Below are positions 1-2,850 of a stretch of DNA of 64,000 nucleotides, piece after piece. A program made the position numbers and the translations under genes. Location: positions 224,001-288,000 of the forward strand of contig JAVJQW010000062.1 in NCBI GenBank assembly GCA_040218735.1. Direction: 5' to 3'. Position 1 is the stretch's first letter, and each line of letters begins with the position of its first letter. Source of the stretch: Deltaproteobacteria bacterium. Its GTDB lineage: Bacteria > Myxococcota > Kuafuiibacteriia > Kuafuiibacteriales > Kuafuiibacteriaceae. Below the pieces are notes generated by a model. It saw only the letters and a program-made list of their open reading frames with translations, was not told where the DNA came from and made no database searches.

Positions 1-829
1 CGTCGCTGGCGTTCCCTCCTCCGTGAGGGGATCGCGTTCGTAGGGAAGTAGCCGCCACCGCGCGGACGCTCCGGCCGACGTCGGTCTCCATGAGCTCATC
101 CGAGAGCGTACGCAGGGTGATGCTCGTGCGCCGCGCCGTGATGTCGCCGGGGAGGATGCCGTGCAGCCAGCGGTACCGAGCCGCGCCGAACAGCACGAGC
201 AGGGAACGCGCGGGGAGCGGGACGCGGATGCGTCGTTTGGCGCGCTCGAGATCGTCGATCGATGTCCCCGGTACGAACGTGAGCGCCGCGTCGGACTCGA
301 GCGAAAGATCGAGGATGACCTCGCCGTAGGCGAAGGTGTCGTCGGCGTGCAGGTCCAGGTTCGACTGGCGTTCGGGTTCGTAGCGGAGCACGAACGCGTC
401 CGTGGTCTCGAAACCAGCTGCGACGGCGAAGGACTCGCGCGCGAGGGATTCGATCCCTCGAATATAATCCGGCAATCCTTCGAAACCCGCGAGGCGCAGC
501 CGGCGGTGCTTGAAGCTCACCTTCGGACCGAAGTGCTGCTTCCGCTTGCCGCTCTGCGCGGGGCGCCACGGCGTTTGCTCGATGCGCGCGAGGAGCGCGG
601 CGGCCGACGCTTCGTCTACGGCGTCACGAAGGACACAAACCCCCGTGAAGTCCGGCGCCGTCGGCACGCGCTGCGATTCGAGGTCGAAGTCGTGCACCTC
701 GCAGGCAGGCAACTCACGCGGCGGGAACATCCCGGTTGCTCGACGCAGCGCCGGGTCGCGACAAACGGCGCACCAGCGAATGCCGGTGCAGACACAGGTC
801 TTGTCGGGGACCACGGCGTCGGCGAGCAC
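1..829 (-). CDS. AlkB-family Fe(II)/2-oxoglutarate dioxygenase, ALKBH4-like (3' end runs off the window)
   Basis: Not in the ORF track because there is no stop in the window. Manual translation from GTG 829 (or 814): CVCTGIRWCAVC...FTGVCVLRDAV...PWRPAQSGKRKQHFGPKVSFK...LRYEPERQSNLDLHADDTFAYGEVILDLSL...LPARSLLVLFGAARYRWLHGI...RRTSITLR, giving the HxD...H triad and RxSxTxR 2OG-binding motif. Confidence 0.85.
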   Translation of the reverse strand, partial: MLADAVVPDKTCVCTGIRWCAVCRDPALRRATGMFPPRELPACEVHDFDLESQRVPTAPDFTGVCVLRDAVDEASAAALLARIEQTPWRPAQSGKRKQHFGPKVSFKHRRLRLAGFEGLPDYIRGIESLARESFAVAAGFETTDAFVLRYEPERQSNLDLHADDTFAYGEVILDLSLESDAALTFVPGTSIDDLERAKRRIRVPLPARSLLVLFGAARYRWLHGILPGDITARRTSITLRTLSDELMETDVGRSVRAVAATSLRTRSPHGGGNASD

Positions 830-855: not shown

Positions 856-2850
856 CTACGCGTCCTCGACGATGACGAAGAACGCGAGGTCCAGGACGCA
901 GGTCGGCATCTCCTGCTTCACGGCGATCATCTCCCCGCGGACGAGATCGCGCGTGAGCTGGATGATCGTGCCGGAGCCGTTGCCGATCTCCGTCGCCGTC
1001 TTGTCGAAGATGCGCACGGTGGCGCCGGGGATGAGGCCCTCCGTGACGAGCACCGTGTCGTCGCCGTGGTGCGGCGTCGCGATCTTCACCACGACGTTCT
1101 GCGGACTGCACGCGACCGGCGGCGGCAGGTCCAGCGGCTCGGACGTCTCTTCACAGAGCTCCTGCGTCCCGACCAGCAGATCCGTCGCGACGAGCGGTGC
1201 GCCGAGGTCGTAGTCGACCACCCGGCGGAACGGCCACGAGGCGTCGTCGAAGTACGTCGTCATCGCGCCCGGAGCGACGTTCTGCAGCTTGATGTGTGCG
1301 CCCTGCACGATGGACTCGATCGTGACGAGCTCCTGCCCGATGATCGGCGGCGCCATCTGCATCGTCGGCAACGTGTCCGGCGCGTCGACCGCGGCTTCGC
1401 GGTTCGACCAATCGCTCGTGTCGGCGCAGAGCGTCTGCTGCGCCTCGAAGCGATCGCCCACGACAAACGGTCCGTCGGCGTACAGCCGCATCGCCGTGAG
1501 GCGGTAGCCGCTCTCCTTGGACTGCAGGTGGGTGCCGCCCGCGGCGCGCGTCTTTCGCACGGTGACCGTCGCGCCCGGGACGTGCTGAACGCCGACGGAC
1601 TTCGCGCACTCGTACACGGGCGTCGCGACGATCTCGGGCGCCGGGAGGCCCATCGGGTAGTCGTCGGTGTGGTCGCGCACGAACGTCAGCACGGTGATCG
1701 AAGAGACGCCACCGACCGTCTGCTTCACGCCGATCACCTGCCCCGTCACGAGCGGAGCCGCCAACTCGAACACGTGTTGGCCCGGGGAGCGCGTGACGGC
1801 CGCGGCGGTGGGCACGCCGCCGATCGACAGCTCGAGCAGAGCGCCCAAGCGCGCGCTGCGAACGGTCACGAAACGCGAACAAGCGTACGGCGGCTCGACG
1901 AGCGGAGGCAGCACCGGGACGTCGTCGGGCGCCTGGAAGGGGCCGACCCATCCGCCGTCACCCGACGTGTTGCACGCGGCCTGGAGCCACCCCTTGTGGT
2001 CCGCGTAGTCGGCGATGTTGCCCGCGGGCGGCATGGTCGGCGTGGCGGCGCCGTCGCCGACCGCGTTGTCGAGCACGATGCTGCAGTAACCCGGGTACTT
2101 GTCGGAGATCAGCGGGAAGCGGCCGGCGTTCGCGGGGGTGTGGCAGCTGTCGCAGCGCTGGCCGGTGGCCGGTCCGAGCTGGTCGAGCGGCGCGGGGTTC
2201 GGGACCCAGTCGGGGTGGTCGGGGATGATCGGCGTCGGCCACACCTGCGGCATGAACGATCCGACCACACCCTCCGCGGCGATGAACTGCGGGTCGAAGG
2301 GGTGAACGACGAACGGGTTCTCGCCGGCGTGGCAGTCGGAGCAGATCCCCTCTGGGTTGCCGACCAGGTCGAACCCGCCGATGAGTTTGTCGATGCCAAT
2401 GGCGCCGATCGACGGGAAGTCGCTGTCCTTCGCGTCCTCGGGTCGCGCGAAGAAACACACGTTGCCGGTCTCACGTCCCATGCAGATCATCCCGAGGATG
2501 TCGGGCTCATGGCCGATGCCGCGACGCGGGAGCGCCAGGCAGAGCCCCTCGGGGTTCGTAACGTCGTCGTAGGCGCCGAAGTCGTGAATCGACCACAGGT
2601 CGGCGTCCCTCGTCGGCTCGACGAAGGTCTCGGCGAGGTCGCCGTAGAGCGTCCAGCCCCGGTCGAGATCGAGCACGGTCTCGGGGACCGGGACGCCCGC
2701 GTTGCGGCACTCTTGGACGTAAGCGGCGCCGGTGTTCATCGTCGCGATCTTGGCGGCCGCGATCGTGGTGCGCTGTTCGGGGGGCTCGGCGGTACAAGCG
2801 GCGAGCGCGAGGAGGAGGGTCGAGAAGCGGAGTTGTTTCGCGGTGAGCAT
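856..2850 (-). CDS. Lipoprotein with two c-type heme motifs and four C-terminal beta-rich repeats
   Basis: Lipobox LALAAC; CSDCH and CDSCH; about four repeats of the form P..P.Y.C...V.V....GA.V.V. Confidence 0.7.
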   Translation of the reverse strand: MLTAKQLRFSTLLLALAACTAEPPEQRTTIAAAKIATMNTGAAYVQECRNAGVPVPETVLDLDRGWTLYGDLAETFVEPTRDADLWSIHDFGAYDDVTNPEGLCLALPRRGIGHEPDILGMICMGRETGNVCFFARPEDAKDSDFPSIGAIGIDKLIGGFDLVGNPEGICSDCHAGENPFVVHPFDPQFIAAEGVVGSFMPQVWPTPIIPDHPDWVPNPAPLDQLGPATGQRCDSCHTPANAGRFPLISDKYPGYCSIVLDNAVGDGAATPTMPPAGNIADYADHKGWLQAACNTSGDGGWVGPFQAPDDVPVLPPLVEPPYACSRFVTVRSARLGALLELSIGGVPTAAAVTRSPGQHVFELAAPLVTGQVIGVKQTVGGVSSITVLTFVRDHTDDYPMGLPAPEIVATPVYECAKSVGVQHVPGATVTVRKTRAAGGTHLQSKESGYRLTAMRLYADGPFVVGDRFEAQQTLCADTSDWSNREAAVDAPDTLPTMQMAPPIIGQELVTIESIVQGAHIKLQNVAPGAMTTYFDDASWPFRRVVDYDLGAPLVATDLLVGTQELCEETSEPLDLPPPVACSPQNVVVKIATPHHGDDTVLVTEGLIPGATVRIFDKTATEIGNGSGTIIQLTRDLVRGEMIAVKQEMPTCVLDLAFFVIVEDA

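Follow-up and report, generated by a model that had tools for sequence, protein, structure and literature searches.

At the left edge of the window, by which we mean the whole 64,000-nucleotide stretch analysed here (contig JAVJQW010000062.1, from a deltaproteobacterial genome that we refer to as G000), lies a minus-strand gene for an Fe(II)/2-oxoglutarate (2OG) dioxygenase of the AlkB family. Its product is of the ALKBH4/NMAD-1 type, a demethylase type with an N-terminal cysteine (Cys) motif that has so far been described only in eukaryotes, its bacterial members being known by automatic database names. All four eukaryotic modules have counterparts: a Cys4 (putative zinc) knuckle, a Flip1/Flip2 lid, a double-stranded beta-helix (DSBH) and a predicted C-terminal helical extension. 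Taken as a whole, we consider it probable that this is an intact bacterial ALKBH4/NMAD-1-type gene of dinozoan-type origin, whose product would work as an N-demethylase. The gene and its parts are placed in the window as follows.

2..829, minus strand: ALKBH4/NMAD-1-type Fe(II)/2OG dioxygenase gene, of which codons 1–276 of 287 are inside the window.
761..796, minus strand: N-terminal Cys4 motif CVCTGIRWCAVC (C12, C14, C20 and C23; residues 12–23), a putative zinc knuckle.
728..730, minus strand: internal ATG (Met34), the start used by some gene callers in near-identical relatives.
482..556, minus strand: predicted nucleotide-recognition lid Flip1/Flip2, residues 92–116, QSGKRKQHFGPKVSFKHRRLRLAGF, from the NMAD-1 alignment and invariant residues.
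341..349, minus strand: H161-x-D163 of the Fe(II) facial triad (LHADD), invariant and aligned with NMAD-1.
161..163, minus strand: H223, the third Fe(II) ligand (WLHGI), invariant and aligned with NMAD-1.
110..130, minus strand: R234...R240 (RTSITLR), the 2OG-binding arginines, invariant and aligned with NMAD-1.
41..100, minus strand: C-terminal helical extension, residues 244–263, matching the C-terminal domain (CTD) of NMAD-1A in position and modelled by AlphaFold2 (AF2).

Inside the window the frame runs for 276 amino acids (aa) from a GTG start at 829..827 and meets no stop before the left edge. Extending the contig leftwards, as a preliminary description of this DNA had proposed, closes the frame 35 bases past position 1, with the last 11 codons and the stop falling left of the window, and gives a complete gene of 287 codons (L001:1465-2328 on contig C18, minus strand, equal to window -34..829). 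The same description had pointed out that the gene is missing from the list of open reading frames (ORFs), which is true and is a window-edge effect, because the frame runs off the left edge and is listed only with open ends; every peptide string that it quoted is present in the frame. An alternative in-frame GTG at 814 likewise retains the Cys motif. The frame is not a chance ORF, because the Pfam domain PF13532 scores above its cut-off, a word-indexed search returns 218 database homologues with E <= 1e-3 (top E 1e-143, 89% identity), and the GC content at the three codon positions (GC1/GC2/GC3 of 0.70/0.52/0.82) follows a native coding pattern like that of the neighbours. Across 43 candidate ORFs in the window GC3 ranges from 0.80 to 0.95 with a median of 0.90, and the value of the dioxygenase gene lies within this range.

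At the level of domain libraries, the sole Pfam match of the protein is PF13532, the general AlkB domain (35.5 bits, where the cut-off is 31.2), and an NCBIfam scan returned no family. A phmmer search against the PDB places Caenorhabditis elegans NMAD-1, an ALKBH4 orthologue, first (E 1.2e-25), followed by ALKBH8 at 1e-5 and by ALKBH3 and ALKBH5 at about 1e-2; the Escherichia coli AlkB chain is not among the 14 PDB sequences with E <= 1. An AF2 model built on 24 clade members has a predicted local distance difference test (pLDDT) score of 89.4 and a predicted template modelling (TM) score, pTM, of 0.85, and is low only at residues 1–3 and 271–287 (below 50 from residue 271). When searched against the PDB with Foldseek, this model again finds the NMAD-1 chains first (E 4e-21, TM 0.78–0.79); ALKBH3, ALKBH8 and ALKBH5 follow at E-values near 1e-11 and E. 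coli AlkB in ranks 48–50 (about 2e-8), and all top matches are of the AlkB family. In the ESM Atlas, the closest neighbours of the protein are clusters of eukaryotic ALKBH4 (TM scores of 0.79–0.80 over residues 5–265, Cys motif included). Rodent ALKBH4 (P0314) aligns with the window protein from end to end at 31% identity (E 3e-42), and contains the motifs that the preliminary description had given for the eukaryotic protein (CGCKGIRTCLIC; PWKLSQSGRRKQDYGPKVNF; RGSAIDPHLDD). We ruled out a classical E. coli-type AlkB by its ranks in the PDB and Foldseek searches, the empty NCBIfam scan and the presence of the N-terminal Cys domain. The protein is thus an AlkB-family Fe(II)/2OG dioxygenase of ALKBH4/NMAD-1 type, to which every sequence- and fold-level membership test that we ran assigns it; the earlier proposal of an ALKBH4-like protein, as opposed to a generic bacterial AlkB, agrees with its best matches, its fold and its place in the tree described below.

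In the alignment of 24 clade members, residues C12, C14, G16, R18, C20 and C23 of the Cys motif are invariant in all 24, as are S93, G94, K97, Q98, G101 and F106 of the lid and the catalytic H161, D163, H223, R234 and R240; G252 of the C-terminal extension is nearly invariant. AF2 models the region of the Cys motif (residues 11–30) with a pLDDT of 85–88, a weak separate phmmer stretch pairs CVCTGIRWCAVC with CGCKGARFCALC of NMAD-1, and an extension of the form DPxLRxxxG[ML] directly follows the motif in the window protein. An N-terminal Zn-binding domain is given as the defining feature of the AlkBH4 clade (PMC4738411), and the Cys motif, first noted in PMC3048578, is described as unique to ALKBH4 orthologues (PMC3048578, PMC10815869). 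According to the first of these two reports it is not the Fe site of human ALKBH4, whose C15A/C17A mutant retains 2OG turnover (PMC3048578), and in the crystals of NMAD-1A the 'hypothetical zinc finger domain' (residues 8–20) is reported as unresolved (PMC10815869).

The lid is the segment most conserved with eukaryotic ALKBH4, and query residues 92–110, QSGKRKQHFGPKVSFKHRR, align gap-free to NMAD-1 (ALKBH4 lid signature, QSGRRKQDYGPKVNFKHKK). In NMAD-1A a short Flip1 and a 'horned' Flip2 make up this lid, and mutagenesis of lid residues is reported to lower demethylation of N6-methyladenine (6mA; PMC10815869). By our alignment, K95/R96, F106/K107/H108 and R109/R110 correspond to NMAD-1A R117/R118, F128/K129/H130 and K131/K132, and the sites at which mutation lowers NMAD-1A activity (numbering from PMC10815869) are kept or conservatively replaced in the window protein. 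Towards the C terminus, AF2 predicts helices at 244–247 and 250–259 plus a short strand; the Foldseek alignment spans 258–259 columns on the 254–255-residue 8hb2 chains, and the phmmer alignment stops at query residue 247. The C-terminal domain of NMAD-1A, which packs on Flip2, is described as essential (PMC10815869). The remaining tail of the window protein (residues 271–287) is predicted to be disordered and is not conserved.

We scanned 185,579 species genomes with a motif-seeded search built on the clade alignment and found 32 loci; seeded by a single protein, the same scan gave 252 pattern matches and no relatives, and the alignment seed was needed. Eleven of the loci are titled Myxococcota, two Myxococcales, 11 Deltaproteobacteria, seven 'uncultured Spirochaetaceae' and one 'bacterium'; one lies on a 6.25-Mb chromosome (titled Myxococcota) and several others on long contigs. 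The metagenome-assembled genomes (MAGs) titled Spirochaetaceae (L019-L022, L025, L026, L030) have proteins inside the Myxococcota clade, with L026 sister to L008 on the Myxococcota-titled chromosome (99 in FastTree), and because these rows sit within that clade their titles look like pipeline placeholders. An exhaustive search of representatives returned 990 matches at E <= 1e-3, of which 54 reach E <= 1e-30, and E-values fall sharply past the first 16 (E <= 1e-51, 47–57% identity), except for P0132 and P0133 at about 1e-43. In the phylum to which the window belongs, four of 401 sampled genomes have a match at E <= 1e-15, two of which carry an ALKBH4-type gene (G000 and G003); no match to the dioxygenase turned up in G001, a genome of the same genus that is 75% complete. 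The other two matches (G004 and G201) belong to a different AlkB subfamily without the Cys motif. This subfamily has the signature RRVQHYGW.Y.Y and occurs as a stand-alone protein of 223 aa in G004 (L042:1390-2061, plus strand) and, in G201 (L043:1483-3525, minus strand), as the C-terminal domain of a protein that has a long N-terminal region and measures 680 aa in all. Among named genomes, the ALKBH4-type clade is confined to Myxococcota and is rare there.

Much of this clade is hidden by its gene calls. The Cys motif is in frame at 31 of the 32 bacterial loci, the remaining one being cut by a contig end, and is found in 75 of 131 bacterial-type database proteins and absent from 56; of the latter, 52 are truncated calls, six of them starting inside the motif and 46 at a conserved Met about ten residues past it. 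Near relatives of the window protein are called from Met34 as 254-aa proteins (P0002, P0003, P0122) and lose the motif, and the NCBI protein P0098 ('alpha-ketoglutarate-dependent dioxygenase AlkB') begins MRPPLALPDW at a locus (L012) that encodes CACTGVRWCARC in frame just before. Truncated calls thereby conceal the hallmark of the family, and the proteins stay named plain 'AlkB'. In JGI records, 'DNA N6-methyl adenine demethylase' is one automatic name and 'alkB family protein 4' another. G000 itself has three other AlkB-family genes (L036-L038), open frames of 189–228 residues with no Cys motif in their sequence, two of which score higher than the dioxygenase on PF13532.

We propose that the enzyme would bind Fe(II) and 2OG and hydroxylate an N-methyl group, which would then leave as formaldehyde. 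Judged from its sequence, the protein is very probably catalytically active. Because the gene neighbourhood is uninformative, the functional argument is drawn from the protein itself, and a nucleic-acid N-demethylase is favoured because the catalytic residues are intact and the lid residues critical for DNA demethylation are the most conserved. The most likely substrate would be a methylated base flipped out of locally unpaired DNA or RNA, as for NMAD-1A, with 6mA as the first candidate; the assignment to nucleic acid is tentative, and may well prove correct.

Two possible sources of context around the gene were considered and rejected. Among ORF families near the loci (33 compared), one found at 23 loci matches WS/DGAT (two members scanned), one at 14 DUF7064/7065 (one member scanned), one at eight CoA-transferase III (two members scanned) and one at seven a MiaB-like radical-SAM enzyme (one member scanned); we read these as shared gene order among related MAGs and not as a functional operon, and none of the four adjoins the window's dioxygenase gene. 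A conserved pairing of methyl 'writer' and 'eraser' was also rejected, as the single MT-A70 gene of G000 (L044:1477-2304, minus strand; 275 aa, DPPW motif, PF05063 at 95 bits) lies elsewhere, on contig C45, unlinked to the dioxygenase. MT-A70 was not found in any of five other carrier genomes, a weak negative, since the controls gave none either.

The protein might instead carry out ordinary alkylation-damage repair, acting like classical AlkB on 1-methyladenine (1mA), 3-methylcytosine (3mC) or etheno adducts in DNA or RNA and on no regulatory mark. We regard this as unlikely, while giving it real weight: the AlkB-family chemistry is shared, no 'writer' is linked to the gene, MT-A70 being on another G000 contig and found in none of the five other carriers, and the lid residues indicate nucleic-acid binding without specifying the base. 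The genome, however, has the three other AlkB-family genes, two with stronger PF13532 scores, and the apparatus specific to ALKBH4 (Cys knuckle, lid and predicted C-terminal extension) is conserved in the bacterial clade, which points to a specialised role.

To place the gene in its evolutionary context, we assembled 302 sequences and collapsed them by identity to 185 (unnamed ones at 62%, named and locus rows at 80%). Named eukaryotes came from cluster look-ups (Acipenser, Pogona, Glandiceps, Tetranychus, Colponema, Perkinsus) and from a search with the G003 protein (fishes, spiders, Hydra), and a search seeded with unnamed sisters of the bacterial clade led to relatives of dinoflagellate (Durusdinium, Effrenium, MMETSP) and Amoebophrya proteins. 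A FastTree of all 185 rows and a quick IQ-TREE left the backbone unresolved, and our conclusions rest on a careful IQ-TREE (LG+C20+F+G4 by posterior mean site frequencies, PMSF; 267 columns) of 58 rows. These comprise the window protein and G003, 12 bacterial loci and 19 eukaryotes with names, 23 unnamed rows close to deep nodes (seven of bacterial type, 15 of eukaryote type, and P0132, which we placed in neither class) and two AlkB proteins from bacteria, not of ALKBH4 type, on which the tree was rooted. The three other AlkB-family genes of G000 were excluded as outgroups because their branches are very long (1.7–3.5).

In this tree a long branch with 100/99 support separates the 56 ALKBH4-type rows from the AlkB outgroups. 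The window protein is placed inside the ALKBH4 clade, among named eukaryotic ALKBH4 proteins, other eukaryotic ALKBH paralogues being kept apart by PDB, ESM Atlas and Foldseek distances only. The Myxococcota form a clade (100/97) whose sister is the unnamed P0132 (96/96). A group of Amoebophrya and MMETSP proteins (96/93) joins Myxococcota plus dinoflagellates at 92/88, G003 and Perkinsus (98/94) branch next, and the whole group of 37 rows has a support of 91/83, with animals, Colponema and other protist-like rows falling outside it. The accepted species order of the Dinozoa is Perkinsozoa, Syndiniales, core dinoflagellates, and the eukaryotic branching inside the 37-row group (Perkinsus, Amoebophrya, dinoflagellates) is the same, as would be expected for a vertically inherited dinozoan gene with a bacterial offshoot. 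An independent character agrees with this dinozoan link: the extended motif C..C.DP.[LV]R...G[LM]H is common to the Myxococcota, dinoflagellate and Amoebophrya groups, takes a weaker form in G003 and is absent in the 15 other eukaryote rows compared. The window protein has 38% identity to a dinoflagellate-group protein (P0303, E 7e-55) against 31% to mammalian ALKBH4 (E 3e-42).

A second, divergent ALKBH4-like gene was seen in G003, a genome of the same family as that of the window (L003:1495-2574, minus strand, 359 aa). Its protein has CVCTGARYCARC followed by a low-complexity insert of about 130 residues ahead of the catalytic domain, and the public call of the gene (P0240, 329 aa) begins past the Cys motif. 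The best named matches of this protein are animal ALKBH4 at about 40% identity, and in the tree it groups with Perkinsus. Holding all 21 bacterial ALKBH4-like rows together costs 19.5 log-likelihood (lnL) units, with a p value of 0.028 in the approximately unbiased (AU) test; a separate acquisition of the G003 gene is thus marginally indicated, as the AU signal is marginal and G003 and Perkinsus are on long branches.

The history that we favour, and hold somewhat more probable than the others without regarding it as proven, is a transfer from eukaryote to bacteria: one old transfer from a dinozoan-type eukaryote into Myxococcota would have been followed by vertical descent and some spread within the phylum. 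The preliminary description had left a choice between horizontal acquisition and a position ancestral to the eukaryotic subfamily, of which the tree favours the first, from a dinozoan-type source, and does not settle the matter (AU p 0.141). Several points weigh against this history or against the proposed function. The Myxococcota and P0132 are joined to the dinoflagellate group (100/100) only weakly, at 80/47, and a tree with all 34 eukaryote rows together and the bacteria outside is not rejected (delta lnL 22.9, AU p 0.141). The root depends on two outgroup rows only, both of them distant, and ALKBH4 is the one eukaryotic ALKBH paralogue in the tree. Names are lacking for 15 of the 34 'eukaryote' rows and for seven of the 20 'Myxococcota' rows, proteins from metagenomes or transcriptomes that were assigned by the company they keep in the tree. 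The bacterial clade is deep, diverse (69 rows after collapse) and compositionally native, and nothing marks the gene as recent. As to function, the loci compared revealed neither a partner methyltransferase nor a conserved neighbour that is informative, zinc binding by the Cys motif is only putative, in eukaryotic ALKBH4 too, the substrate of ALKBH4 is disputed in the literature between actin monomethylated at lysine 84 (K84me1) and DNA 6mA, and the activity of NMAD-1A is itself described as weak (PMC10815869).

The opposite direction, in which the Myxococcota clade is the older and eukaryotic, or at least dinozoan, ALKBH4 derives from a myxobacterial-type gene, is in our judgement rather improbable. 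It would fit the AU result, which allows a position of the Myxococcota outside all eukaryotes, as well as the depth and diversity of the clade, its partly conserved local gene order and its native composition; AlkB genes as a whole are also held to have reached eukaryotes from bacteria (PMC4738411, PMC8868631). In the same sources ALKBH4 is treated as one clade arising in the eukaryotic radiation of AlkB (PMC4738411; PMC8868631, section 3.2.2). Yet very few bacteria have the gene (32 out of 185,579 species genomes and two of 401 in the phylum), whereas ALKBH4 is widespread among eukaryotes (named animals and alveolates), and the maximum-likelihood tree nests the bacteria among Dinozoa in species-tree order. 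A bacterial root would put Dinozoa deepest among eukaryotes or require a further transfer.

More doubtful still is a demethylase or hydroxylase acting on a bacterial protein, after the activity reported for mammalian ALKBH4 on actin K84me1. Mammalian ALKBH4 is called a lysine demethylase in database names and papers (PMC8060266; Li et al. 2013, as cited in the literature), but the lid residues needed for DNA demethylation by NMAD-1A are the most conserved part of the window protein, and no eukaryote-type actin was found in G000, where the PF00022 actin-family model gives only weak, MreB-like matches (35 and 30 bits). The same model also fires in five control bacteria, and we rejected actin as the substrate.

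The gene that we read as an ALKBH4-type N-demethylase is intact, chromosomal and bacterial. The contig that surrounds it is at least 394 kb long and belongs to a genome of 11.6 Mb (96.5% completeness, 4.65% contamination), the GC content of the gene is 0.66–0.70 against 0.69–0.72 in the flanks, and an identical protein has been recorded on a contig of 11.5 Mb. With its relatives titled Myxococcota, the host is a myxobacterium-like bacterium, as the preliminary description had supposed. A near-identical gene (at least 98% over 660–1030 bases) occurs in aquaculture, sponge and biofloc metagenome contigs from three studies, the copies differing at five of 1034 bases, 13 of 663 and 13 of 742, with no insertions or deletions across four metagenome runs. 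Twenty of these substitutions fall inside the gene, 11 synonymous and nine nonsynonymous when scored singly, with none in codons 1–53, and are too few for measuring selection.

Upstream by 26 bases and on the same strand is a 664-aa gene (window 856..2850, minus strand) with a lipoprotein-like N-terminus (…LLLALAAC…) and two CxxCH motifs (CSDCH and CDSCH), a sequence that suggests a dihaem c-type cytochrome lipoprotein; neither Pfam nor PADLOC assigns the protein to a family. On the downstream side, a YjbR-like gene (weak match) and a DUF2461 gene run convergently, and further along come genes for an ABC-F ATPase, a glyoxalase/AHSA1 protein and an aspartate-oxidase-like flavoprotein. The YjbR-like ORF, just left of the window (L001:1233-1550, plus strand, 105 aa; 19 bits, below cut-off), overlaps the final 86 bases of the dioxygenase gene, and the true 3' ends of both are uncertain because the overlapped tail (271–287) is predicted to be disordered and is non-conserved. 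Neither the 664-aa lipoprotein gene nor the DUF2461 gene was found at E <= 1e-20 in five relatives, and these therefore gave no empty insertion site to compare. PADLOC assigned no family to the dioxygenase or its upstream neighbour, and thus no link to a known defence system. An artefact, be it a eukaryotic sequence that entered the bacterial genome through faulty binning or assembly, or a frame that is pseudogenised or arose by chance, has next to no probability and is refuted for practical purposes: the contamination estimate of 4.65% and a GC3 that is third lowest among the 43 candidate ORFs stand in its favour, against a position within a long contig with ordinary bacterial genes on either side, the identical protein on an 11.5-Mb contig, homologues on the Myxococcota-titled 6.25-Mb chromosome and on contigs of 300–480 kb, and a frame free of stops, frameshifts and, across the four metagenome runs, indels.

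We found no literature description of a bacterial ALKBH4, in line with the premise of the preliminary description that this clade had not been broadly characterised, though the AlkBH4 clade lists that supplement PMC4738411 may include bacterial members. The main value of the gene is as a tractable orthologue for two questions about ALKBH4, its substrate and its zinc domain. ALKBH4 is among the least settled AlkB homologues, with a disputed substrate and a defining Cys domain never seen in a structure, and a compact bacterial orthologue with every module, in a cell without eukaryote-type actin or nucleosomes, is a natural test. If the fold, lid and knuckle are under selection in bacteria, neither actin nor chromatin is likely to be the conserved substrate. 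Purification and crystallisation together with the Cys domain may also be easier for the bacterial protein. The gene would also document that an 'epigenetic' enzyme of eukaryotes has passed between protists of dinozoan type and marine Myxococcota.

Two further-reaching readings, singly or together, are unlikely: that the protein is a working bacterial ALKBH4-type eraser of 6mA on unpaired DNA or RNA, and that the clade is a relic of the bacterial source of eukaryotic or dinozoan ALKBH4. They draw their weight from the intact lid and catalytic residues and from the AU test, which allows a position outside the eukaryotes. In bacteria, 6mA is not known to be lost other than by dilution, and a working eraser would mean enzymatic reversal of an adenine-methyl mark in bacteria; a relic would bear on proposed myxobacterial contributions to eukaryotes.

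Compared with known systems, E. coli-type AlkB and the three other AlkB genes of G000 share PF13532, the Fe/2OG ligands and the chemistry with the window protein, but have no Cys motif and a different lid. Vertebrate ALKBH4 (rodent P0314) shares the Cys pattern CxCxGxRxCxxC and the lid signature QSG[KR]RKQ..GPKV.F, and differs in a long insert between DSBH strands and in having no DPxLRxxxG[LM] extension after the Cys motif. C. elegans NMAD-1A (PDB 8HB2, 8HAZ and 8HBB), a DNA 6mA demethylase, is the best match in both sequence (E 1e-25) and fold, with the same module order of Cys knuckle, Flip1/Flip2 lid, DSBH and (as predicted) C-terminal extension, HxD...H and R...R at identical positions and conserved lid residues. 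The identity on the 8hb2 chains is, however, only 21–22% (Foldseek), T165/F166 follow HxD in the window protein where NMAD-1A has M188/W189, and the CTD of NMAD-1A is acidic and nucleosome-binding, whereas the host of the window protein is a bacterium without nucleosomes and its C-terminal extension is likened to that domain by position only. The closest eukaryotic relatives are the dinozoan ALKBH4 proteins (Durusdinium, Effrenium, Amoebophrya, Perkinsus and MMETSP), whose genes lie on eukaryotic scaffolds of 0.4–4.6 Mb and some of which are longer or contain long inserts (Amoebophrya, 493 and 666 aa); the dinoflagellate and Amoebophrya groups share with the bacterial clade the extension that follows the Cys motif.

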